From Solirubrobacterales bacterium (GTDB lineage: Bacteria > Actinomycetota > Thermoleophilia > Solirubrobacterales > 70-9): DNA of 48,385 nucleotides. The stretch spans positions 1-48,385 of the forward strand of contig VEQW01000001.1 of NCBI GenBank assembly GCA_018883025.1. The letters run 5' to 3'. Shown piece by piece: positions 5,133 through 25,750 of the stretch; the first letter of the stretch is position 1, and every line of letters starts with the position of its first letter. The notes beneath the pieces are model-generated. The model ran no database searches. It had not been told where the DNA came from and worked only from the letters and a program-made list of their open reading frames with translations. A program made the position numbers and the translations under genes.

Positions 5133-5741
<609 letters not shown>

Positions 5742-5905
5742 CTCTGGATCACTCCTTCGTTCGTTTGGGAAAGCCTCTGTCCGGAGATCGTCCGGGACCG
5801 TCAGGTTACCGGCCCTGCGGTCCTCGGACCGGCCCGGGCAGGCGCCTCCGAGGGCATCCGGGACTAGGATCGGGTCGTGTCCGCTTTCCGGTGGGAGCCA
5901 GAGAG

Positions 5906-6985
5906 GTGAAGGTCGTCTGCGCGACCGACTCACCGACCTGGCGCCTGCTGCTGGAGCGTTCGGTCGAAGCGCTCGGCCACGAGCCCGTCCTAGCCGAGGA
6001 CGGCGAGCAGGCCTGGGGTCTGATCGAGGCCGATCCCGAGATCGACGTCTGCGTGACCGACCGCCAGATGCCCGGGATGGGTGGCGAGGAGCTGGTCGAG
6101 AAGATCCGGAAGGAGCTCGAGGGGCGCTACGTCTACACCGTCCTCCTGACCGCCCAGGACACCTCCGAGGAGGTGATCGAGGGGATGGAGGCAGGTGCCG
6201 ACGACTACCTGGTCAAGCCGCTCGACCAGGTGGCCCTGGCGACCAGGCTGGTCGCGGCGGAGCGGGTGACCGCGCTCCATCGGACGATCGCCGAGCAGCG
6301 GGTCGAGATCGAGCGGCTCTATGGCAAGCTCGCCGACGCCTTCAAACGGTTCGTGCCCGAGTCCGTCGCCGAGCAGATCATCACCCGGAGCGACGAAGGC
6401 GTGAAGCTGGGCGGAGTCTCCCGGGTCGCAACCGTCATGTTCACCGACCTCCGGGGCTTCACCCAGTTCTCCGAGCATCAGGGTCCCGAGCAGGTGATCG
6501 AGGTCGTCAACCGTTACCTGGGCGAGATGTCCGAGGCGATCCTCAACGAGGAGGGCACGGTCGTCGCTTACATGGGCGACGGGATCATGGCGGTATTCGG
6601 AGCTCCGCTCGAACAGGATGATCACGCCGACCGGGCCCTCCGGGCGGCCAGGGCGATGCTGGACGTCCACCTGCCGAGATTCTCGGACTGGATGGAGGGG
6701 CAGGGGCTCGGTGAAGGCTTCCGCATGGGGATCGGCCTGAACTCCGGGGAGGTCGTCTCGGGGAACGTCGGCTCGGAGCGGCGGCTCGAGTACACCGCCC
6801 TTGGCGACACGACCAACACTGCGGCGAGGCTGGAAGGAATGACCAAGGGAACGCCCCACCAGCTCTACTGCTCGGAGACCACGAAGGAGATGCTGCTGGA
6901 CCCGCCCGATGACCTCGTCTTCGTCGACGAAGTCGACATCCGGGGCAGGGACCAGCCGCTCGGCGTCTGGTCGTTCGCGGAGTAG
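5906..6985 (+). CDS. Response-regulator receiver fused to a class III adenylate/guanylate cyclase catalytic domain
   Basis: REC domain: [10 protein letters not shown]...[18 protein letters not shown]...VLLTAQD...DYLVKP (acidic pocket, phospho-Asp, Thr and Lys all present). Cyclase domain: [64 protein letters not shown] place the start at in-frame GTG 5906. The tracked ORF starts at TTG 5765. Confidence 0.85.
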
Positions 6986-7040: not shown

Positions 7041-9020
7041 ATGTTCCGCCTGCCGGGAACCGAGCCGGACGAAGTCGATCGGGGGTCGGAGGGAGCCCCT
7101 CCCGCCCCGCGACGGAGCCGCCTGCTTTCCTCGCCGGGAAGGCTGCCGGCCCTGCTGATCGCCCTGGCGGTCATCCCGACCGCGGTGGTCTCGGTCTTCA
7201 CCTTCATCAGGGCGAGCGACCTGATCCAGACGGGTATCGGCGAGGATCTGAGCGCCTCCGCCTCCTTCCTCGCGATCTTTACGGAACAGGACCTGGTCAA
7301 CCTGTCAAACCAGGCCCAGTCGCTTGCGGCCGAGCGAGCGATGCGTGACCTCAATCCCGTGGATGCCACCGGGAACCTGACCCGCGAGCTCATCGCCTTC
7401 GCACCCAACTATCGCCAGGCGATCCTGGTAGACACCACCGGTCGGGTGGTCGCCGCGGCGACGAAGCCTCCCGGCGCGAGGGGACCCATCTCCCCCGCGA
7501 CATTCACCGGTGTCGACGTCAGTTCGGAGACCTGGTTCAAGGACGCCCTGGTCAACAACAGTGGTGGGGACTCCGGAGTGATCCTGGAAGGGGTGGAGAA
7601 CCGACGGGTGATCGGCGAGGTCGAGGGCAGCGATGCCGCCCCACCCGCTCCTGTTGCGGCTGCGACGGTGCGGAAGGATCGGACCATCGTCGGGGTCCTG
7701 GCCCTCTTCCCGAACTGGCCGGTCACCGCCAGATACCTGGCCGCAGGAATCAAGGAGCAGGCAAGGCGAACCGACGCGAAGGAGGTAATCGGCCTGCTCA
7801 CCGATGAACAGGGACGAGTGCTCGTGGGTGCCGACGGAAAAGTCGACCTGAACACGGATTTCAGAGGCGACAAGGTCCTCCAGGAGGCACTGGCCTCGCC
7901 GGGCAACGGCTGGACCGAGGCCTACGACGATCCGGCCGATGGGGGGTATCTCTCGGGCGAGACCATTTACGGGTTCGACCATCTCAAGGACGTTGGCGGA
8001 TCGGACTTCGACTGGATCTGGATCGTGGCCCAGGAGAAGAGCGTTGCGATGGCCGACACCTCGGGACTCAGGCTGAGGCTGATCCTGGGTTCGATCCTGA
8101 TCCTGCTTGCGGCCGCGCTGATCGCCCTGTTCGTGGGCAGGGCACTTACCCGGAGGGCGCGGGAGTTGCGGGCCACCGCGGACGAGGTCGCGGAGGGCGC
8201 CTCGATCATGAAGGCAAGCGCCGAGAAGGGCAGAACCCGCGCCCAGCGGACCGAGGAGCTCGCCTCCCAGCAGGTCGAAGGCATGGAGCGAATGCGCGAA
8301 CAGGTCGAGGAGATGCGGAGGACCGGTGGTCGGATCGGCGAGAGTGCCCGGCTGGTCGCAGAGCAGGCGGGCAAGGCCGCAGAGGCCGGCGAAGGTGGAC
8401 GCAGGGCCGCAGAGGAGGTCGACCGGGCGATGGTCGGAATAGAGCAGAGGGTCCGCGCACTCGAGGGGGAGATCGGTGCGCTTGCCACCCAGACCGACCA
8501 GATCGGGGAGATCGTCTCGACCGTTTCCGGGATCGCCGACCAGTCGAACCTGCTCGCCTTCAACGCGACCATCGAGGCGGCCAAGGCCGGGGAGCAGGGT
8601 GCCGGGTTCGCCGTTGTCGCCGAAGAGGTAAGGACCCTGGCCGAGCGCTCGAAACGTGCGACCGCCCAGATCCAGGCGATCCTGAACGAAATCGAGAAGG
8701 CAACCAGGACTGCCGAGCGCTCGGCGCACGAGGGTCTCGATGCCGTGGTCAGCGGGCGGGAAAGGGCTGCGAGTGCAGCCAGGACGATCGATGAGCTGGC
8801 CGAGGCCAACCGGGAGGCCGAGCGCACGACCCGGGAGATCGCCGACTTCGTTCCCAGCCAGTCGGAGGCGAGCGACGTGGTGCTGGAGGTCGCGGAGGAA
8901 TCGGTCGAGAGGGCAGCCGAGGTCCGTGGCGAAGCCCACCATTCCTCGAACTCGACCGCCGAACTCGACCGTCTGGCGGAGCGGCTGCGGGAGCTGGCCT
9001 CCACCCTGACCACGGACTGA
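7041..9020 (+). CDS. Methyl-accepting chemotaxis protein with a large extracytoplasmic (Cache-like) sensor domain
   Basis: Two hydrophobic segments ([22 protein letters not shown] and [22 protein letters not shown]) bracket a sensor region of roughly 285 aa. The highly conserved MCP hairpin tip is present: [40 protein letters not shown]. Confidence 0.9.
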
Positions 9021-9027
9021 CCCGGGG

Positions 9028-9444
9028 ATGGACGAGAGCCCGGGCCTGATCGAGCTGACCGGTGGCGAGAAGGCCCTGGACCAGGCGAGCCTGATCCGCC
9101 TCGTCGAAAGCCCGGAAGTGGCCCCGATCCCGAACCCCGACGGAGCCTGGGTCGGGGTGGCCAACCTTCGGGGCGAGGTGATCCCGGTGACCGACCTCGG
9201 AATCCTGTCCGGTTCCGGTCCGGTCGAACGGCCGGTGATGATCGCGCTCCGGACTGGAGGGCGATCCTTCGGCCTGCTGGTCGAGGGGGTCGAGCGGACG
9301 GTCGAGGCCTCCGGGGAGGGGGACCTCCCCGACGAGCCCGAGCCGGGCGACCCACCCTGGTTGCTCCCAGCCCCTCCCGGCAGTCCCCGGGTCATCGACC
9401 CCGAACTCCTGCTTGAGGATCCCCGGCTCGGTTCCGGCACATGA
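9028..9444 (+). CDS. cheW: CheW-like coupling protein
   Basis: 138 aa with the CheW-domain pattern ...VAPIPNPDGAWVGVANLRGEVIPVTDLG...VMIALRTGGRSFGLLVEGV. It starts 7 nt after the MCP stop and overlaps the cheA start by 4 nt (ATGA). Confidence 0.85.
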   Translation: MDESPGLIELTGGEKALDQASLIRLVESPEVAPIPNPDGAWVGVANLRGEVIPVTDLGILSGSGPVERPVMIALRTGGRSFGLLVEGVERTVEASGEGDLPDEPEPGDPPWLLPAPPGSPRVIDPELLLEDPRLGSGT

Positions 9445-11576
9445 GCCGCGCCTTCCGTCCCGACGACGAGCTCAGGGGGGAGCTGCTCTCGCTCTTCGCC
9501 GGTGAGGCGCGGGACGAACTCGACACGATCTCCTCCGGGCTGGTCTCTCTCGAGTCGGGCGGAGAGGACGCCATCTCCTCGGGAAGGTTCGACGAGATGA
9601 TGCGGGCTGCCCACAGCCTCAAGGGCGGTGCAAGGGCGGTCGAGCTCGATCCGGTCGACCGGATCGCCCACGCCCTCGAGGGACTGATGAAGGCGGCGGC
9701 AGAAGGAGGCGGATTCGGAGTCGACACCGTCGATCTCGCCTACCGCGCCCTGGATGCGATCGAAGTGATCATCGAGGCCGCAACCGGGGGACCGCCCACC
9801 GAGGTAAACGTGACTGCGATCTGTGACGAGCTGACGGCGGCCGCAGGAGGTGACGGCGGTGGAGGTGCGCGAGAGCAAGGTCCAACTGAGCGACCCGGGG
9901 ACCGTCCCGAACCCGAGAGGACCGCTCCGGGCACCGCGCCTGAAACGAAAGCCGAAGATCCGGGCGGGCCTGTCGATGCCCCGACCACTCCACTGGCCGA
10001 GACGACGGTCCGGGTCAATGTCGCCAAGCTGGATCGCTTGATGGCATCGGTCCGCGAGCTCGAGACCGCCCGGGTCGGGGTCGAATACGCCACCTCCCAG
10101 CTGGAGGAAGTCGCCGAGCGGGAGGACATCGAGACCCGCCAGTACGACCGGCGCTCGGGGGCGATCAGGGATGCCACTGCCGGACCGCTGACCCAACTGG
10201 AGAGGGCCGCGAGAGAGGTCGCCGAGGAAGTTGCCGAGGCCCGGACCGTCCCGCTCTCCCTCGCCTTCGATCCCCTTCCACGAACCGTCCGTGAACTCGG
10301 TCGTGACCTCGGTCGGAAGGCGAGCATCGAGGTCTCGGGAGGCGAGATCGACGTCGACCGCTCGGTGATGGAGGTCCTGAGGCCCGCACTCGTCCATGTG
10401 ATCCGGAACGCGATGGACCACGGGATCGAGCCACCGGCGGTCAGGACCGCGGCCGGGAAGTCCGAGGAGGGCCGGATCACCGTCAGGGCCCGGTCGGGGG
10501 GAGGTCGACTCGAGGTCGAGGTGACCGACGACGGGGCCGGACTAGATGTCGAGGCGATCAAGCGAAAGGCGATCGATGCCGGCCTGATCTCGGCCGCGGA
10601 GGCGGATGCACTCTCCGAGGACGAGGTAGCCGCGCTGCTGACCAGGCCCGGTTTCTCGACCCGTGAGTCTGCCGGGGAGATCTCCGGGCGTGGAGTCGGG
10701 CTGGACGCGGTACAGGAGGGCCTCGCATCGATCCAGGGAAGTCTCGAGATCGTCGGAATCAGGGGGTCGGGAACGATGGTCACGATGAGCGCCCCCCTGG
10801 CGATCGCCGCGACCGAGGTACTGGTGGCGCGCCTCGGCGGGCACCCGGTCGGGTTTCCCCTGATCGAGACCGACCAGGTACTGGAGCTCGAGGACCCCGA
10901 AGCCGCCGAGGTTGAACTGAGCGGCTTGATCGTCCCGCTTTCGAGTCGCGAGACGATCGGCGGGCTGGCACCGGACGTCGCTATCGAGCCCCGCTACGCC
11001 GTAGTCGTCCGCTCCTCTGGCCGACGGATCGCCTTTCCGGTGGAAGAGCTGGTCGGGGTGACCCGGTTGAACACGATGCCCCTGCCGGACCTGCTGCCCC
11101 CGATCGACCTGTTCAAGTCGGTCGCGATCCTCCCTGACGGCAGCGTGCTACGGGTGCTGGAGCCACCCGCTCTGATCGAGGACCTTCCCCCGGCCCCCCG
11201 GCTCCTGGTCGTCGACGACTCGGCCGCGTGGCTGGAAAAGAGCAGGGAGTGGTTCACCCGGGCCGGCTGGGATGTAGGGACGGCAACCAACGGGCGGGAC
11301 GCCCTGTCGATGTTGTCGGAGGACTCCTTCTCCGCCCTGCTCACCGATCTCGAGATGCCCGATGTAGACGGCATCGAGCTGACCAGGACCGTCCGCGCCG
11401 GCGGGGCCGGAAGGGCCGATATCCCGGTGGTCGTCTGGTCTGCCTCGGCCGATGGGGAGGCCGGACCGACGGCGCTGGGGGCGGGGGCCGATGCCTTCCT
11501 GGCCAAGGAGGCCGGGAATGAAGCGGGCGCGCTGGAGGCGATCAACGGGGCGCTGGAGCAGCGACCAGCGACCTGA
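9441..11576 (+). CDS. cheA: Hybrid CheA histidine kinase (Hpt-dimerisation-HATPase-CheW-like-REC)
   Basis: P1 Hpt motif MRAAHSLKGGARAV. P3 segment VRVNVAKLDRLMASVRELE. N-box HVIRNAMDHGIE, G1 DDGAGLD, G2 GRGVGLDAV. P5 segment VLVARLGGHPVGFPL. C-terminal receiver RLLVVDDSAAW...LLTDLEMPDVDGIEL...VVVWSAS. A Pro/Gly/Glu-rich linker sits where P2 would be. Confidence 0.9.
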   Translation: MSRAFRPDDELRGELLSLFAGEARDELDTISSGLVSLESGGEDAISSGRFDEMMRAAHSLKGGARAVELDPVDRIAHALEGLMKAAAEGGGFGVDTVDLAYRALDAIEVIIEAATGGPPTEVNVTAICDELTAAAGGDGGGGAREQGPTERPGDRPEPERTAPGTAPETKAEDPGGPVDAPTTPLAETTVRVNVAKLDRLMASVRELETARVGVEYATSQLEEVAEREDIETRQYDRRSGAIRDATAGPLTQLERAAREVAEEVAEARTVPLSLAFDPLPRTVRELGRDLGRKASIEVSGGEIDVDRSVMEVLRPALVHVIRNAMDHGIEPPAVRTAAGKSEEGRITVRARSGGGRLEVEVTDDGAGLDVEAIKRKAIDAGLISAAEADALSEDEVAALLTRPGFSTRESAGEISGRGVGLDAVQEGLASIQGSLEIVGIRGSGTMVTMSAPLAIAATEVLVARLGGHPVGFPLIETDQVLELEDPEAAEVELSGLIVPLSSRETIGGLAPDVAIEPRYAVVVRSSGRRIAFPVEELVGVTRLNTMPLPDLLPPIDLFKSVAILPDGSVLRVLEPPALIEDLPPAPRLLVVDDSAAWLEKSREWFTRAGWDVGTATNGRDALSMLSEDSFSALLTDLEMPDVDGIELTRTVRAGGAGRADIPVVVWSASADGEAGPTALGAGADAFLAKEAGNEAGALEAINGALEQRPAT

Positions 11577-13428
11577 TTTCCTCGAGGTGGGCCTCGCCTG
11601 CAGCCCGCCCGATCTCCACCGCCCGATCGAACGAGCCGAAGTCGAGCATCTTGAGGCGCGACACCTCCGGTTCGATCAGCAGGTCCGCCCGACCGGAAAC
11701 CCCCTCCCCCGCCGCAGCCGAACCGAGCAGTACCGACCGCAGCAGGGTCTCCCCGAGAAAGGGCAACGCCGGGTGTCCCTCCCGATCCAGGTCGGGCTCG
11801 AACCTCCCACCCACCTCGACTGCGACGACCGGGCCCTCATCCATGTCGGACATCACATCGACCGGCAGGTTCCTGATCAACCCGCCATCGACGAACAGGC
11901 GGCCGGCGTCCTGTCCCGGCGGCAGGAAGGCCGGGATCCGGGCGGTGTTCAGGGCTGCCTCGGCGACGAGCCCGGATCGCTGGACCACCATCTCCGCCTC
12001 GACCATGTCGGCGGCCACCGTGAACAGGTCGATCGGCAGCGTCTCGATCACCCGGTCGCCAAAGATCCGCTCCATCACCTGCTCCGCCCCATCGGTTCTC
12101 GATACGGCGCTCCTGGGGGGCACCTGGTACCGGTGACGGACCCTCCTACTGAAGATCGACTTGACCGCCCGGCGACGGGAGGGTGCGTCGAGTCCAACCG
12201 CAAAGGTCGAGGAGACGATCCCGCCCATGCTGGTACCGCCGATCCGGTCGACGAGTATCCCGTTCTCCTCCAGGACCTCGATCAGGCCGAGGTGGGCAAA
12301 GCCCCTGGCCCCACCGCCCCCGAGGACGAGGCCGAGCGAGGAGCCGGTGAGCCTTCGTGCGGCCCTTGCCAGATCGGCCCCCTGCGCCTCCCCTGCCTCG
12401 ATCCGATGACGGGACCGGGGCCGGAGAACTTCGATCCAGGCGGCTGCAACCTCGGCCGGGTACTCCGGACCGACGAAGATCAGGTCACAGCCCTGGAGCC
12501 TCGGCATCGGCTTCCTGGGCGGGGGCATCCGCGGCGGTGCCACACAGACCAGTCGGTCGGCCTGGCGCACGCAGAACCGCCGCCACTCTCCCTCATCCCG
12601 ATCGGCGACCAGGATCACCCGCTGGTTCTGCCGCTCGGACTCATCGAGAAGGTGACCCCAGGCAACCGGGTCACCAGACTCGGCAACCGACGGATCGAGA
12701 ACGGTGACCCCACCGAGATCGGCAAAGGCCCGCCTGACCCCATCGGCGATCGCGGCCACATCCATTCCGTCGAGAAGAGGGACGACCGCGAAGGTCTTGT
12801 GCTCGGGCAGGTCCTCCGGCAGCCCACCGCTTGCCTGGAGCTGCCGACCGAGGGTCGAGACGAGCGCCCTCGTGAAGGTCGGAACCGAGGTCATGAGCTC
12901 GCGAAACGCCTCGAACGACAGCCTCAGCAGGCTCGAGTCCCGGCTGGCCCTGACCGATGCCGAGCGAGGGTCCCCGGTGACCAGGGCGAGCTCCCCAACC
13001 GTCGCCCCCGGACCGAGTACACGGAGGATCTCGATTTCGTCGTCATCCCGGGATCCGTCCGGGCCTTCCCCGCGAACCACTTCGAGCCGCCCGGTCTCGA
13101 CCAGGTAGAGGGCGTCCCCCGGATCGCCCTTCCTGATCAGCCAGTCGCCTGCCTCGACGGCTACCCGTTCGAGGCGTTCCTCGACCTGGTCCCTCGCCTC
13201 GGCCGGAAGTGCACCGAACAACGGGCTCTCGGCGAGGATCCTCGCGACGCGATCATCTCCAGCCTCCACGGGGAGCGAGTCTACGGCGATATTCCGAAAT
13301 CCCCTGGATGACCCGGACCGGCTGAAACGGGCTCGGCTAGGCTTCACTGCCTTGCGACTCCGAGAGGAAACCCAGTGGACTTCCTGACCCAGGCGGACAC
13401 CGAGAAGCTCGGAGGAGCGATCAACCAC
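11542..13428 (-). CDS. Cyclic-nucleotide-binding domain + patatin-like phospholipase (NTE-family architecture)
   Basis: N-terminal CAP-type cNMP domain: PLFGALPAEARDQV...GDWLIRKGDPGDALYLVETGRLEV...GELALVTGDPRSASVRA (intact phosphate-binding cassette). Patatin motifs: LVLGGGGARGFAHLG (oxyanion hole), GGTSMGG (GxSxG) and FVDGGLIRNLP (catalytic Asp). Start uncertain: the maximal ORF start at 13428 overlaps the divergent gene. In-frame GTGs at 13347 and 13269 are alternatives. Confidence 0.85.
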   Translation of the reverse strand: MVDRSSELLGVRLGQEVHWVSSRSRKAVKPSRARFSRSGSSRGFRNIAVDSLPVEAGDDRVARILAESPLFGALPAEARDQVEERLERVAVEAGDWLIRKGDPGDALYLVETGRLEVVRGEGPDGSRDDDEIEILRVLGPGATVGELALVTGDPRSASVRASRDSSLLRLSFEAFRELMTSVPTFTRALVSTLGRQLQASGGLPEDLPEHKTFAVVPLLDGMDVAAIADGVRRAFADLGGVTVLDPSVAESGDPVAWGHLLDESERQNQRVILVADRDEGEWRRFCVRQADRLVCVAPPRMPPPRKPMPRLQGCDLIFVGPEYPAEVAAAWIEVLRPRSRHRIEAGEAQGADLARAARRLTGSSLGLVLGGGGARGFAHLGLIEVLEENGILVDRIGGTSMGGIVSSTFAVGLDAPSRRRAVKSIFSRRVRHRYQVPPRSAVSRTDGAEQVMERIFGDRVIETLPIDLFTVAADMVEAEMVVQRSGLVAEAALNTARIPAFLPPGQDAGRLFVDGGLIRNLPVDVMSDMDEGPVVAVEVGGRFEPDLDREGHPALPFLGETLLRSVLLGSAAAGEGVSGRADLLIEPEVSRLKMLDFGSFDRAVEIGRAAGEAHLEEIRSLVAAPAPR

Positions 13429-15177
13429 CTCGTGATCGGCCTCTGCCGGCTCGAGGAGAGGGCAGATGGCACCGTCCCCTCTTTCGAGGAGGTGAGGGAG
13501 CTGGTGGAGGAGCGTCTGGGGCGCTCACCGCGGTTCAGGCAGTTCCCGTACGCCCCGCCTGACCATGGCGGCCTTCCCGTCTGGGCCGATGCCCAGGACT
13601 TCGACCTCGACTACCACGTGGTCGAGGCAGAGACGGACGGCCCGGTCGATCGTCACCAGCTAGACGAACTGCTGGCCGAATGGATGACCACGCCGATCGA
13701 CGAGGAGCAGCCGCTCTGGCGGGTCCAGTACGTCCCTACCGAGGACGGCGCCGCACTGATGGTCAAGTCGAGCCACGCCCTTGCAGACGGACTGGGTTCG
13801 ATCGCCCTTTTCGCGATGCTGCTCTTCGACGTGACCGAGGAGCCGGTACGCGAGGACGCGGCCCCCTGGGAACCGGCCCCCTTGCCGGATGCCTCGGAGC
13901 TCAGGACGGCGGCAGGCCAGGCCGACTCGGATGAGGCCGAGGCCGACAAGACCCCCCTCGAAAAGGTGGTCTCCCTCATTTCGAGCCCCGAGGCGATCCG
14001 GCAGACCGCGACCGAAACGGCAGGGGTCAGCTCCTACCTGATCCGGAAGGCCCGGACCGAGGTCGCACCGAGTCCCCTGGCCCAGGGGTCCGGCATGCCG
14101 CTGGAACTGCACACCCTCGAATACCCACTCGATCGGCTCAAGCTGCTCGGTCGTGGCCTCGGGACCGGCGCGACGATGAACGACGTGATCCTCGGCCTGA
14201 CGGCCGGTGGCCTCCGCCGATGGTGCGTCGAGAACGGCTACCCACTGGAGGAGATCGCCGTGCGGGTCCCGGTCGCGACGAAGAAGAGGGAAGGTGAGGG
14301 TGAGGGCAACGCGAGCGTAGCCCCGATGATCGTGCCACTGCCCCTCGAGGAGGCGGACCCGGTCAGGCGGGTTCGCCTGCTCAGGGAGCGGACCGAGTCG
14401 ATCAAGAATGCCGGTCAGCCGGAGCTGAACCTGGCGGTCCGGAACCTGGCCAGGGAGGCCCCCGGTCCGGTCGGCGAGCGGATGTTGAACCTGGTCACCG
14501 GCAAGGGGCAGGCAAACATCGCGATCCACAACCTGCCCGGACCCCCCCTCAAGCTCTACGTTCTGGGGGCACCGACCGCCTCGTTCCACAGCTTCACACT
14601 GCCGCGGGCCGGCCTCGCGATCCACCTCAACGTCGTCTCGGTCGGCGGGGTAGTCTCGATCGGACTCGCGGCCGACCAGGGCGTCGCAGGGAGTCTCGCT
14701 CCGTTCGTTCGCGGCATCGAGGAGACGGAGGAGGCCCTCGCGAGCGGCGTGTCCTGCCTCGACCTCGTACGCCGGGTGCCGATCTTCGCACCGCTCGACG
14801 ATGAGATGCAGGAGGACCTCGCCTCCCGCATGGTCGAGCGAAGGGTCGAGGGTGGGGAGACCCTGGTCGCCCAGGGTGAGCCGGCTGAGGACTTCTTCCT
14901 GATCGTCGAAGGAGCCTTCGACACCCAGGTGGACGGCCAGTCGGTTCGGACGATGGGTCCGGGCGACTCGTTCGGGGAGATCGGCCTGCTCAGGGACACC
15001 GAACGAACGGCGACGGTAGAAGCGAAGGAAGCGGGAGTGGTGATGGTCTTGAGTCGCGAGGACTTCCTCGGTGCCGTCTCCGCCGACCCGGCAAGCATGG
15101 TCGTCGCCGACGCGATCATCAACACGAGGCTCGGCGATCTCGGGCGGTATCAGGTGTTCAGCGAGACAGCGGACTGA
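13375..15177 (+). CDS. WS/DGAT-family acyltransferase (wax ester synthase/diacylglycerol acyltransferase-like) with C-terminal cyclic-nucleotide-binding domain
   Basis: Active-site motif at the expected position (~aa 130): KSSHALADGLGS, a SHxxxDG variant of HHxxxDG. C-terminal-half WS/DGAT pattern: ANIAIHNLPGPPLKLYVLGA. The last ~135 aa form a CAP-type cNMP domain: RRVPIFAPLDDEMQEDL...GETLVAQGEPAEDFFLIVEG...FGEIGLLRDTERTATVEA. GTG start with GAGAGGAAA upstream. Confidence 0.8.
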   Translation: MDFLTQADTEKLGGAINHLVIGLCRLEERADGTVPSFEEVRELVEERLGRSPRFRQFPYAPPDHGGLPVWADAQDFDLDYHVVEAETDGPVDRHQLDELLAEWMTTPIDEEQPLWRVQYVPTEDGAALMVKSSHALADGLGSIALFAMLLFDVTEEPVREDAAPWEPAPLPDASELRTAAGQADSDEAEADKTPLEKVVSLISSPEAIRQTATETAGVSSYLIRKARTEVAPSPLAQGSGMPLELHTLEYPLDRLKLLGRGLGTGATMNDVILGLTAGGLRRWCVENGYPLEEIAVRVPVATKKREGEGEGNASVAPMIVPLPLEEADPVRRVRLLRERTESIKNAGQPELNLAVRNLAREAPGPVGERMLNLVTGKGQANIAIHNLPGPPLKLYVLGAPTASFHSFTLPRAGLAIHLNVVSVGGVVSIGLAADQGVAGSLAPFVRGIEETEEALASGVSCLDLVRRVPIFAPLDDEMQEDLASRMVERRVEGGETLVAQGEPAEDFFLIVEGAFDTQVDGQSVRTMGPGDSFGEIGLLRDTERTATVEAKEAGVVMVLSREDFLGAVSADPASMVVADAIINTRLGDLGRYQVFSETAD

Positions 15178-22956: not shown

Positions 22957-24228
22957 TCAGCCGGTGGTGCGATCTGCGCCGGTCTGGCGCAGCAGAGAAC
23001 CGGTCGTCTGGTCGAAGATCCGACGCCAGACCGATGCCTCGCTCGACTCCTGTTCCTTGACCGTACGGATCACCTTCCTCAGCCGCGTCGCCGATATCTC
23101 GAGTCCGTGGCGCTCGGTGATCTGCTTGAACTCGTCGTAGTTGTCGGCCAAGCGGGCCGTCACCGACTCGAAGCCGTGGGCCGCGACGGCGAGACGGCTC
23201 GAGTAGTCCATGATCGAGGTACCGAACATCAGCTCGTCGTCCATCTCGGGTTCGATCAGCAGGATGTCGACTCCCGGGTACTTCTCGTTCCAGAACTGGA
23301 CCGCCATCTTCAGTCGCTGGTGGACGAGGAGCCTGAACGTCTGGTTGGCGATCGCCGGAAGGCCCATGTCGGCGATCCGCCTGACCTCCCTCCCCCCAGG
23401 GGTGGGGATTCCCTCCTCACGATCGTTCACGAGCGGGACGAGCGGGTTGACCACGACGATGAACTGGGCCCCGCGATCGACGGCCACGTCGACGTTGGTG
23501 GTCGAGTAGATGCCACCGTCTACCAGGACCCTTCCGTTCACCTCGACAGGCTCGTAGACCAGCGGCAGGGCGGTCGAGCACTGGACCGCCTTGGAGATCG
23601 GTACACCGCTCCACGATCCCTCGGACTCCCCGAGCACCACCCGCTCGCCGGAATCGATGTCGGTTGCCGTTATGTAGAGGTCCCGCTGGAGCGAATCGAA
23701 GGAGTCGTTGATCCCCTGGGTTGCGAGGGCCTCACGGACGTAGCCCTCGATCCCCTCGTTCGAATACAGGCCGGTCGGCAGGTGCTCGGCCAGGCCCCAG
23801 CCGACGTCCATCACCGAGATGTCCCTCGCCCTGGGGATCATGTTGCGGGCCATGCCTGCCAGGTGGGCCGGCAGCGAGACCGCCCGCCTCGCGTACTCGC
23901 CGAAGGTCGGTCGGAGCATCGTGTTCTGGGTCATCCGCTCGATCGGTGCGCCCTCCTCCTCGGTGAGGACGCGCAACATCTCGTCCGGGGTCACCCCGGC
24001 TGCGAGCATCGTGCTGACGAACGACCCGGCGCTGGTTCCGACGTACATGTCGAAGTCGTTGACCCCGGCGTTGACCGCGAGCAGGTCGAGGGCCCGGAGC
24101 GCCCCGATCTCGTAGGTCCCGCCGGTCAGTCCACCACCCCCGAGGACCAGTGCGGTCTTCGAGGGACGCTTACGCCTTTTCGACCCGCGCCGCTTCGGAC
24201 GCCGGTCGATGTCGACGACCTTGCCCAT
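22957..24228 (-). CDS. Patatin-like phospholipase (no cNMP domain)
   Basis: I set the start at ATG 24228 (MGKVVDIDRRPKRRGSKRRKRPSKTALVLGGGGLTGGTYEIGALRAL). GxSxG motif is VGTSAGSF and the catalytic Asp lies in VLVDGGIYSTTN. The 186 upstream codons of the tracked ORF (to 24786) are Arg/Pro/Ser-rich and overlap dacB on the other strand. Confidence 0.85.
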   Translation of the reverse strand: MGKVVDIDRRPKRRGSKRRKRPSKTALVLGGGGLTGGTYEIGALRALDLLAVNAGVNDFDMYVGTSAGSFVSTMLAAGVTPDEMLRVLTEEEGAPIERMTQNTMLRPTFGEYARRAVSLPAHLAGMARNMIPRARDISVMDVGWGLAEHLPTGLYSNEGIEGYVREALATQGINDSFDSLQRDLYITATDIDSGERVVLGESEGSWSGVPISKAVQCSTALPLVYEPVEVNGRVLVDGGIYSTTNVDVAVDRGAQFIVVVNPLVPLVNDREEGIPTPGGREVRRIADMGLPAIANQTFRLLVHQRLKMAVQFWNEKYPGVDILLIEPEMDDELMFGTSIMDYSSRLAVAAHGFESVTARLADNYDEFKQITERHGLEISATRLRKVIRTVKEQESSEASVWRRIFDQTTGSLLRQTGADRTTG

Positions 24229-24391
24229 CCCGCTCAGTATGCCAATCCGACGGGACGGGCGGAGGGAGGGGTAGCTCGTCTTCGAGGGGGGATGGGCGGC
24301 TCCGATCCAGCGAGGCGGTGGACGAAATCGATGCTTCGGGATTCGGCATCCAGAGCGGAACCCTGGCCTCCCGGCTAGATTCCGCGGGGCC

Positions 24392-25750
24392 ATGAAGGCA
24401 ATGACGCGGGACCTCGGCAGGCTTCTCGCGGCGGGATTGCTCCCGGCTGCGCTGGTGGTGCCTGCCCTACTGCCGGGGGTCTCGGCCGCCAGCCCCGACC
24501 GCCCCCTGCCCAATCCGGATCGACCCGCAGTAACTCCGGTCGCACCGCTCGCCTCGCCTGCTGACCACCGCTCGGTGGCCAGCTCCTGTACGGCGATGCG
24601 CCGGCAGGCAGGCAAGGGTAACTCGGCACCATCGCTGGTCGTGCTGGAACTGGGATCCGGTGAGACCGCCTGTGCGCTCAACCCCGGTCGTGCCCGATCG
24701 CTCGCCTCGAATACCAAGATCCTGACCACGGCGGCGGTGCTCGGCCGGCTCGGACCTTCCTTCCGCGTCCAGACCAGGCTGTTCACCGACGGTACGATCG
24801 ATCCCGAAGGAACGCTCCAGGGCAGCCTCTACCTGAAGGGCGGGGGCGATCCGGCACTCGGAACCGGGCCCTTTCTCGAGAACTACCTCGGTGGGGCGGG
24901 TACCGATATCGATTCGCTCGCCCTCCAGGCGAGGGAGGCCGGGGTGAAACGGGTCACCGGTCGGGTCTACGGCGATGAATCGGTCTTCGACTCGCTGCGG
25001 GGAGTGGCCGACTCCGGTTACGCCACCAGCCCCTGGATCGGTCCGCTCTCGGGTCTCTCGATAAACGCCGGGTTCACCGGGGCCGGGCTCTCCGAGTTCA
25101 GCTCGAACCCGGCCCGCCTGGCCGCGAGGACCCTCGCCAAGCGGCTGAGGAAGCGCGGTGTCTCGGTCACCGACCAGGTAGCGCTCGCCCGGACCCCGAA
25201 CCTCGCGCTCCGGTCGCGGCCGCTCGCGATCGAGGAATCCGAGGACATGGCCTGGTTGGCAGATGTGACCAACCTCTACTCGAACAACTTCTTCGCCGAG
25301 ATGCTCGTCAAGTTGCTGGGCGCCACCAAGGGCAGGGGTGGGAGCACGAAGGCCGGTACACGGGTCGTCAGGGAGTTTGCGGCTTCCCTCGGGGCGGCCG
25401 TGGACCCGGTCGATGGCTCTGGCCTTACGGTGACCAACCGGGCCAGTGCCGAAGCGATCGCCCGACTCCTGGTCAATGCGAGGGAGAAGGACTGGTGGGG
25501 TCCCTTCTACCGCTCGCTGCCGATCGCCGGTCGTGAGGGAACGGTCGCCTACCGGATGCGGGGGACCGCAGCCGAGGGACGCTGCCGGACCAAGACCGGA
25601 ACCCTGACCGGGGTGAGCGCCCTCTCCGGCTACTGCTTCAACCGATCAGGCAGGCGTTTCGCCTTCTCGATCCTGATGAACGGGGTGAGCGATACCTATG
25701 ACGCCCGGGCCGCCCAGGACAAGATCGCGGCCCTGGTCGCCGGGCTCTAA
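24392..25750 (+). CDS. dacB: D-alanyl-D-alanine carboxypeptidase/endopeptidase (PBP4, peptidase S13)
   Basis: Signal peptide MKAMTRDLGRLLAAGLLPAALVVPALLPGVSAA. SxxK motif in LASNTKILTTAAVL, SxN-type motif in VDGSGLT, and KTG motif in CRTKTGTLTGVSALSGY. Confidence 0.85.
   Translation: MKAMTRDLGRLLAAGLLPAALVVPALLPGVSAASPDRPLPNPDRPAVTPVAPLASPADHRSVASSCTAMRRQAGKGNSAPSLVVLELGSGETACALNPGRARSLASNTKILTTAAVLGRLGPSFRVQTRLFTDGTIDPEGTLQGSLYLKGGGDPALGTGPFLENYLGGAGTDIDSLALQAREAGVKRVTGRVYGDESVFDSLRGVADSGYATSPWIGPLSGLSINAGFTGAGLSEFSSNPARLAARTLAKRLRKRGVSVTDQVALARTPNLALRSRPLAIEESEDMAWLADVTNLYSNNFFAEMLVKLLGATKGRGGSTKAGTRVVREFAASLGAAVDPVDGSGLTVTNRASAEAIARLLVNAREKDWWGPFYRSLPIAGREGTVAYRMRGTAAEGRCRTKTGTLTGVSALSGYCFNRSGRRFAFSILMNGVSDTYDARAAQDKIAALVAGL

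Follow-up and report, generated by a model that had tools for sequence, protein, structure and literature searches.

A receiver-bearing class III cyclase and its active site

In this work, we analyzed a gene for a receiver-bearing nucleotidyl cyclase, hereafter the REC-cyclase, and the genes around it in a Solirubrobacterales bacterium (assembly GCA_018883025.1, contig VEQW01000001.1); the stretch analyzed, referred to as the window, comprises positions 1-48,385 of the forward strand of this contig. The REC-cyclase gene lies at 5906..6985 (+ strand, stop codon included), starts with GTG and encodes 359 amino acids. This start codon is backed by homologs 359-361 amino acids long, with 99-100% coverage and 77-96% identity; a longer open reading frame (ORF) from 5765 is a same-frame upstream extension that is not needed. 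An earlier note on this DNA, made from the sequence alone, had described the cyclase domain as carrying non-canonical residues at the two positions that specify the substrate, and had proposed that its product may differ from cyclic AMP (cAMP).

The N-terminal receiver (REC) domain (5912..6247, + strand; residues 3-114) is matched by Pfam Response_reg PF00072 at 6e-19. Its D8, phospho-acceptor D52 (6059-6061) and K104 (6215-6217), all checked at the codon level, are invariant across 45 aligned homologs together with P105, and the first acidic residue of the receiver is Thr7 in the REC-cyclase versus Asp in the family consensus. A helical linker with a cyclase transducer element (CTE) follows (6248..6427, + strand) and holds the sequence FKRF at residues 146-149 (6341-6352). 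In the HMMER alignment to 6fht, a chimera with the cyclase part of Cya2, this linker stretch pairs with TFGRYLTDQVVATL, and the CTE-like FKRF falls opposite the Cya2-derived FGRY, the name given to the CTE motif (PMC5995499); F146, R148 and F149 are invariant in the 45 aligned homologs. The class III catalytic domain (6428..6958, + strand; residues 175-351) is matched by Pfam Guanylate_cyc PF00211 at 2e-24, with 86.7 bits against a cut-off of 21.9, and by the PDB sequences 2w01 (1e-34), 1wc0 (3e-25) and 3r5g (5e-22). The NCBIfam models gave receiver-domain matches below cut-off and none to a specific cyclase family. The REC-cyclase is thus a receiver joined to a class III nucleotidyl cyclase, an assignment supported both by the profiles and by the fold described below.

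The two metal-binding aspartates, Asp181 (in FTDLRGFT; 6446..6448, + strand) and Asp225 (in MGDG; 6578..6580, + strand), and the transition-state residues Asn304 and Arg308 (in NTAAR; 6815..6829, + strand, with N304 at 6815-6817 and R308 at 6827-6829) are all present, as the earlier note had stated. The four residues are unchanged in 121/121 sequences of a set made of the query and its 120 best full-length homologs, all with the REC + cyclase layout and 46-96% identity. With its four catalytic residues intact, the enzyme should therefore be active.

The substrate-specifying positions are different. Ala221 (in TVVAYMGDG; 6566..6568, + strand) occupies the position of the purine-specifying Lys of adenylate cyclases or Glu of guanylate cyclases, and Thr297 (6794..6796, + strand) the second specificity position, which is Asp in class IIIa and Thr or Ser in class IIIb. 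Ala221 precedes the second metal Asp by four residues and Thr297 the catalytic Asn by seven, with no gap between either residue and its anchor. In the HMMER alignments, the residue opposite Ala221 is Lys in CyaC (TVDKFVGDA) and in Pseudomonas aeruginosa CyaB (TIDKFVGDC), Glu in Cya2 (TIDEFMGDG) and an engineered Lys in 6fht, and the residue opposite Thr297 is Thr in CyaC (DFTAIG) and CyaB (DYTIIG) and Gly in Cya2 (KYGVVG). BLASTP against Sinorhizobium meliloti CyaK set K against Ala221 and S against Thr297. The by-eye alignment of the earlier note, with Ala at the Lys position and Thr at the Asp position, is therefore upheld by gap-free alignments to four characterized sequences (CyaC, CyaB, Cya2 and CyaK), and HMMER and BLASTP alike give Ala221, not a canonical residue, at the first position.

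The earlier note had also proposed that an AlphaFold model be compared with solved class III cyclases. An AlphaFold2 model built from 45 homologs reached a mean predicted local distance difference test (pLDDT) score of 83.2; in it, a helix spanning residues 108-146 continues out of the receiver and is followed by a second helix at 152-161, with pLDDT <50 at 141-168. Foldseek superposed the model on Cya2 2w01 with a template modelling (TM) score on the target of 0.85-0.87, a root-mean-square deviation (rmsd) of 2.0-2.3 Å and 39% identity, on CyaC 1wc1 with a TM score on the target of 0.87-0.89 and an rmsd of 1.9-2.0 Å, and on CyaB with a TM score of 0.86 (E 1e-15 to 1e-19 over the Cya2, CyaC and CyaB matches), so that the superposition on Cya2 and CyaC is at about 2 Å. 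Since the Foldseek output comes without residue pairs, it is the sequence alignments that fix the positions of Ala221 and Thr297; the agreement of the model in fold only confirms that like is aligned with like.

Judged from these alignments, the REC-cyclase has Ala221 at the place, four residues ahead of the metal ligand Asp225, where canonical adenylate cyclases have Lys, and carries in Thr297 the Thr/Ser that marks class IIIb as the second substrate residue. The earlier note had called the exchange of Asp for Thr typical of class IIIb, in agreement with PMC2613629, where this class is marked by the same exchange. The marks of guanylate cyclases of the Cya2, eukaryotic and PucC type are missing as well, with Ala221 instead of Glu and, in NTAAR, Ala307 at the position of the Cya2 Tyr (NLTYR), a position at which CyaC, CyaB and CyaK have Ala or Ser. 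For the cyclases of Pycsar systems, PMC11224242 gives F100/R142/Q144 as base readers and D102/D146 as metal ligands of EaPycC, so that Arg142, four residues before Asp146, corresponds to the Lys position by numbering; the base readers given there for BcPycC (Y50/D94/R97) and AnPycC (F60/K104/F109), which are polar, charged or aromatic, could not be placed. The Ala/Thr pair as aligned here therefore fits none of the known types, whether the adenylate type with its Lys, the guanylate type with its Glu or the Pycsar type, represented by the Arg that EaPycC has by numbering.

The REC-cyclase shares features with two groups of characterized enzymes. Cya2 from Synechocystis (2w01; E488K variant 6fht) is its closest solved relative and has the same MGDG and FGAP motifs and the transducer element, but carries Glu/Gly and a Tyr before the catalytic Arg in place of Ala/Thr and Ala307, and a CHASE2 membrane sensor in place of the receiver. 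The class IIIb adenylate cyclases CyaC (Spirulina, 1wc0/1wc1), CyaB (3r5g) and CyaK have Thr or Ser at the second position and the same catalytic residues, and the CyaC and CyaB folds match that of the REC-cyclase model (TM 0.86-0.89); however, all three retain the Lys that the REC-cyclase and its relatives lack.

Small residues at the lysine position of the clade

Across the 121 sequences, position 221 is Ala in 102, Gly in 11, Ser in 6, Asp in 1, Thr in 1 and Lys in none, whereas position 297 is Thr in 84 and Ala in 37. Combined, the pairs read A/T (69), A/A (33), G/T (11), S/A (4), S/T (2), D/T (1) and T/T (1). A search of 1.84 billion cluster representatives (50% identity) with the catalytic part yielded 97,724 matches at E<=1e-3, of which 4,690 reached E<=1e-30. 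Among the best 150 of these 4,690 representatives, the first position is S in 56, A in 47, T in 13, D in 11, G in 7 and K in 6, the remainder being C (3), N (3), E (2), Q (1) and a gap (1); most of these best 150 thus belong to the Lys-less clade, and nearly all of them keep the catalytic Asp, Asn and Arg residues. The Asp found at the Lys position in 11 of them (D/T 10, D/A 1), often as GTVVDYMGDG, defines a subset of the CHASE2-type clade; its negative charge sets it apart from Lys and from the small residues and may point to yet another specificity.

A Pfam scan of 50 representatives (the top 62, from which 12 apparently truncated or multi-stretch rows had been removed) found CHASE2 + cyclase in 40, so that most close relatives of the REC-cyclase catalytic domain resemble Cya2 in being CHASE2-regulated; the others were REC + cyclase (1), DUF7134 + cyclase (1), cyclase + major facilitator superfamily (MFS) transporter (1) and cyclase alone (7). 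Among these fusions, P0139 joins a Lys-less cyclase to the MFS transporter and P0134 joins one to DUF7134. One of the CHASE2 cyclases, P0165 (721 amino acids), combines CHASE2, a Lys-less cyclase (S/T) and a C-terminal domain of the type that binds cyclic nucleoside monophosphates (cNMP), an arrangement that would permit product feedback. Of the CHASE2 relatives found within the order, the nearest read A/T, G/T, T/T and S/T and the more distant ones H/T, K/T and K/S.

As a control, 79 loci of other species were drawn by motif patterns, in a non-random sample, and the 67 cyclase ORFs obtained from them were aligned by the same method; the first position was Lys in 54/67, Gln in 4, Arg in 3, Ala in 3, Ser in 1 and cut off in 2. 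The earlier note had called loss of the Lys not typical, a statement that holds for class III cyclases at large but not for the clade of the REC-cyclase, with Lys in 0/121 homologs and in 6 of the best 150 representatives. Several REC-cyclases of other phyla carry other residues at this position, namely Arg (L033:7479-9371, R/G; L037:1428-3089, R/G; L040:7905-9122, R/A) or Gln (L024:7923-9008 and L025:1910-2998, both Q/T). By numbering, Arg is also the residue of the CTP-specific Pycsar cyclase EaPycC at this place (PMC11224242).

In a FastTree phylogeny of the 120 rows that covered 85% or more of the domain (31/151 rows dropped, including both Cya2-like E/G rows; midpoint rooting), the six K/T rows fall outside the 114 Lys-less rows. 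Support of the key node is weak (0.465), and we do not claim that the Lys-less rows are monophyletic. Of the genetically characterized CHASE2 cyclases of S. meliloti, CyaK, 38% identical to the REC-cyclase and with a K/S pair, was ruled out as a member of the Lys-less clade.

Taken together, the alignments identify the small residue at the Lys position as an inherited trait of a large, Cya2-related clade composed mostly of CHASE2 receptor cyclases. With the catalytic residues unchanged, the first position varies from one small residue to another, as if its side chain had no part in base reading and what is conserved were the space. The same data bear on whether the domain produces any nucleotide signal at all. 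Loss of the base-reading Lys lowers activity in engineered enzymes, and the lack of this canonical residue could be taken to mean that catalysis has been lost or that the domain serves as a dimerizing or regulatory module only; we consider this extremely improbable, in view of both metal aspartates, the Asn and the Arg being kept in all 121 homologs and in nearly all of the best 150 representatives, and of the strict linkage of the gene to two genes with cNMP-binding (CNB) domains.

Neighboring genes and candidate receptors

Downstream of the REC-cyclase, and on the same strand, lie the genes for a dCache-type methyl-accepting chemoreceptor (MCP; 7041..9020, +), the only MCP found in the assembly, for CheW (9028..9444, +) and for a CheA with HPt, dimerization, HATPase, CheW-like and C-terminal REC domains (9441..11576, +), which is the presumed phosphodonor of the REC-cyclase. 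They are followed by a gene for a CNB domain joined to a patatin-like phospholipase (CNB-patatin; 11542..13428, -), with the phosphate-binding cassette GELALVTGDPRSASV, and by one for a WS/DGAT acyltransferase with a C-terminal CNB domain (WS/DGAT-CNB; 13375..15177, +), with the cassette GEIGLLRDTERTATV. At a distance of 9.5 kb from the CNB-patatin gene there is a second gene for a patatin-like phospholipase (22957-24786, -; 609 amino acids), which carries no CNB domain. On the other side, the ORF listed for an Fe/Mn superoxide dismutase (sodA; 5133-5933, -) overlaps the start of the cyclase. Its Pfam match begins at residue 66 and the true sodA start is therefore probably near 5738, which would probably leave a divergent promoter space of about 170 bp between sodA and the cyclase gene.

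Neither CheR (PF01739) nor CheB (PF01339) nor flagellin was found in the assembly, which is 87% complete (1.49 Mb in 149 contigs). By its gene content, the MCP-CheW-CheA cluster looks like a Che-like pathway whose receiver output does not act on a motor. In this regard, a weak whole-chain Foldseek match of the REC-cyclase model was PDB 3bre, which we take to be a WspR-type REC-GGDEF output of a Che-like pathway. The WspR-type systems likewise combine a CheA-CheW-MCP cluster with a receiver-bearing output that makes a nucleotide second messenger and does not steer a motor; they differ in that their output is a GGDEF domain, and not a class III cyclase, and in that CheR and CheB were not found in the incomplete assembly studied here. 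Among the 79 loci of the non-random control sample, a single REC-cyclase (L098, Lys/Asp) has an MCP and a CheA within 8 kb, and the Che linkage is therefore lineage-specific.

The presence of CNB domains beside a cyclase is also a property of the Pycsar and Pucsar systems, in which homodimeric class III-like cyclases (PycC, PucC) make a product that is read by such domains, and the earlier note had drawn the analogy to Pycsar. A cyclic pyrimidine product (cCMP or cUMP) would agree with the best PADLOC match of the REC-cyclase, which is the PycC model PDLC00734 (1.1e-26; 91.8 bits, slightly above the 86.7 of Pfam, and with no curated PADLOC cut-off), with the matches of the neighboring CNB domains to PycTIR-type CNB models and with the patatin lipase, which is conceivable as an effector. 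However, the PycC matches reflect generic class III similarity. The position held by Arg142 in EaPycC, by numbering, and by Glu in PucC is occupied by Ala, Ser or Gly in the clade, and the position of the second EaPycC reader, Gln144, is Met in the REC-cyclase. In addition, Pycsar is a two-gene system of a cyclase and a CNB-TIR or CNB-transmembrane effector, whereas the REC-cyclase heads an MCP-CheW-CheA cluster between sodA and metabolic genes, with a receiver and a signaling rather than a defence context and with no TIR or transmembrane effector beside it. The placed pocket residue, the operon type and the neighborhood all being different, the analogy does not hold, and we regard a pyrimidine product as very unlikely.

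The CNB domains themselves were of little help in this respect. The cassettes of both neighbors read Arg-Ser/Thr-Ala (RSA and RTA), as do those of PKG domains, but cassettes of this kind are also found in cAMP receptors such as the CRP-family proteins. Deducing the product from the neighboring CNB domains was therefore abandoned, neither their cassettes nor their best PDB matches (PKA, PKG and CRP-family) being discriminating.

The second cyclase and the product of the REC-cyclase

Two genomes of the same genus (G014 and G015) share the gene order REC-cyclase, MCP, CheW, CheA-REC, CNB-patatin, WS/DGAT-CNB, sulfotransferase; their REC-cyclases are 94% and 85% identical to the one studied here. 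The REC-cyclase was found in 3/18 other genomes of the genus (G005, G014 and G015), and an orthologue with at least 85% identity in 0/12 other genomes of the order, where the best full-length match is 39% identical (G020). CNB-patatin is present in the same 3/18 genomes, with weaker homologs in three genomes of the order, and so is the full-length WS/DGAT-CNB fusion, the match elsewhere stopping before the CNB part. The sole other cyclase gene of the assembly lies on another contig (C148; L003:793-1977, +) and encodes 394 amino acids with the canonical Lys/Asp pair and an N-terminal helix-turn-helix that gave weak excisionase/FtsR-type matches. This Lys/Asp cyclase occurs in 17/18 other genomes of the genus (at least 62% identity) and in 27/30 relatives (at least 37%).

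CNB domains were detected in 31/31 genomes, and a gene of CRP size in most relatives. In the source assembly (G000), only two such domains were found, both of them those of the lipid enzymes in the window, while G005, G014 and G015 have a third one, in open frames of 246-328 amino acids. As the nearest kin have it, the absence of a third domain from the source assembly is probably due to an assembly gap, with the domain lying in the missing 13%. Two genomes from other families of the order encode a Lys-less CHASE2 cyclase (G/T in one, T/T in the other) and, at a distance of 4-5 kb, a regulator of the CRP family with CNB and HTH_Crp_2 domains (regulator L100:2000-2737 with cyclase L100:6884-8680, and regulator L101:7939-8682 with cyclase L101:2327-4090). 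This regulator is the only CNB match of the genome in one case (G028) and resembles CRP of Mycobacterium tuberculosis (4e-26). By their sequence, the CRP-family regulators encoded near Lys-less CHASE2 cyclases tilt slightly towards cAMP.

Several reasons lead us to give 3',5'-cAMP, possibly made with loose purine selectivity, a slight preference as the product of the REC-cyclase. First, the engineered Lys->Ala forms Rv1625c K296A and Slr1991 K177A could still be assayed as adenylate cyclases (PMC2613629), and cAMP was for this reason taken as the default. Second, the whole clade shares the exchange for Ala or another small residue, so that the REC-cyclase probably still makes cAMP. Third, the residues lean towards ATP, in that Glu is missing at position 221, Ala307 is as in CyaC, CyaB and CyaK, and Lys->Ala enzymes are assayable. 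Besides, the mycobacterial class III cyclases Rv0386 (Gln/Asn) and Rv1900c (Asn/Asp) do not have the Lys/Asp pair and make mainly cAMP, a precedent for the pair not being obligatory for ATP use; they differ from the REC-cyclase in belonging to class IIIc, in having polar residues at these positions, in having no receiver and in being single proteins and not a large clade.

Nevertheless, a number of points weigh against this reading. No assayed member of the Lys-less clade was found, and cAMP is thus a default and not a finding; a literature search, which did not extend to the reviews most apt to list such variants, returned no assay of any class III cyclase whose Lys position is taken by Ala, Ser or Gly. 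That main-chain contacts to the adenine N6 would suffice for ATP preference is an assumption taken from the structures of CyaC and of soluble adenylate cyclase. The nearest solved relative, and the best match both in sequence (1e-34) and in fold, is the guanylate cyclase Cya2, and the PKG-like cassettes of the neighbors keep cGMP in consideration. Moreover, the Lys/Asp cyclase is a core gene, whereas the REC-cyclase and both CNB-lipid enzymes come and go as a unit, and a come-and-go module beside a separate core cyclase would be better insulated by another nucleotide.

The match to Cya2, the cassettes and the module also speak for a guanylate or dual cAMP/cGMP cyclase, which would feed a messenger channel separate from the core cAMP circuit of the Lys/Asp cyclase and a CRP-type regulator. 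Cya2 has Glu/Gly at the specificity positions and becomes an adenylate cyclase through E488K alone (PMC4215837, PMC5995499), the Tyr before its catalytic Arg raises its guanylate cyclase activity (PMC4215837), the cGMP-forming PucC has E118/K195 (bioRxiv 10.64898/2026.08.12.744502), and the bacterial guanylate cyclase XC_0250, with Ala150, has a small residue at the second position (PMC3770947). Removal of the Lys takes away an adenine-specific contact, and Cya2-like E/G rows are found in 2 of the best 150 representatives. On the other hand, the REC-cyclase has neither the Glu at position 221 that is used by the guanylate cyclases that could be checked (Cya2 and PucC) nor the GTP-favoring Tyr, which is replaced by Ala307, and the cassettes are of a kind shared with cAMP receptors. 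The joint presence or absence of the module's genes may go back to one event, the four carriers being close kin, and many bacteria run several adenylate cyclases and cAMP receptors in parallel, with 16 cyclases in M. tuberculosis (PMC4174876). The unit-wise co-occurrence is therefore short of proof of a separate messenger, although a module of this kind beside a core cyclase is the main reason why we keep a guanylate or dual specificity as a possibility, if a fairly unlikely one. As to the proposal of the earlier note that the product may differ from cAMP, the residues do allow for this, but we found no positive indication of a product other than cAMP.

Starting from the observed domain make-up, residues, conservation, fold and gene linkage, and with cAMP as the slightly preferred product, the following mechanism may be proposed. 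CheA would phosphorylate Asp52 of the receiver, and the signal would pass through the alpha-5 helix, the helical linker and the CTE and shift the catalytic dimer to its active register. The class IIIb-type catalytic domain would work as a head-to-tail homodimer with two active sites, in which the base may be held by a hydrophobic pocket and main-chain contacts and not by a Lys side chain, with relaxed purine selectivity. The cNMP product would then be bound by the CNB domains of the patatin-like lipase and of the WS/DGAT acyltransferase, its putative receptors.

By its sequence, the REC-cyclase belongs, as a receiver-driven member, to a large Lys-less branch of the class III cyclases that is related to Cya2 and apparently unassayed. 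Annotators call adenylate or guanylate cyclases from two "specificity" residues, and the Lys-less clade has neither signature. The REC-cyclase is a handy test case in this regard: it is soluble and has only 359 amino acids, it has an on-switch at Asp52, two candidate receptors adjoin it and a canonical cyclase is available as an internal control. The identity of its product decides which signal gates the adjoining lipase and acyltransferase. It is tempting to speculate, although we consider it unlikely, that the Lys-less clade, with its CHASE2 receptor and receiver cyclases, makes cGMP or a purine mix and thereby creates a second, insulated channel. If this were true, thousands of genes annotated as adenylate cyclases would bear the wrong product name, and small freshwater Solirubrobacterales would possess a chemoreceptor-driven channel read only by two co-travelling CNB-lipid enzymes, with cAMP reserved for the core Lys/Asp cyclase and the CRP-type regulator.

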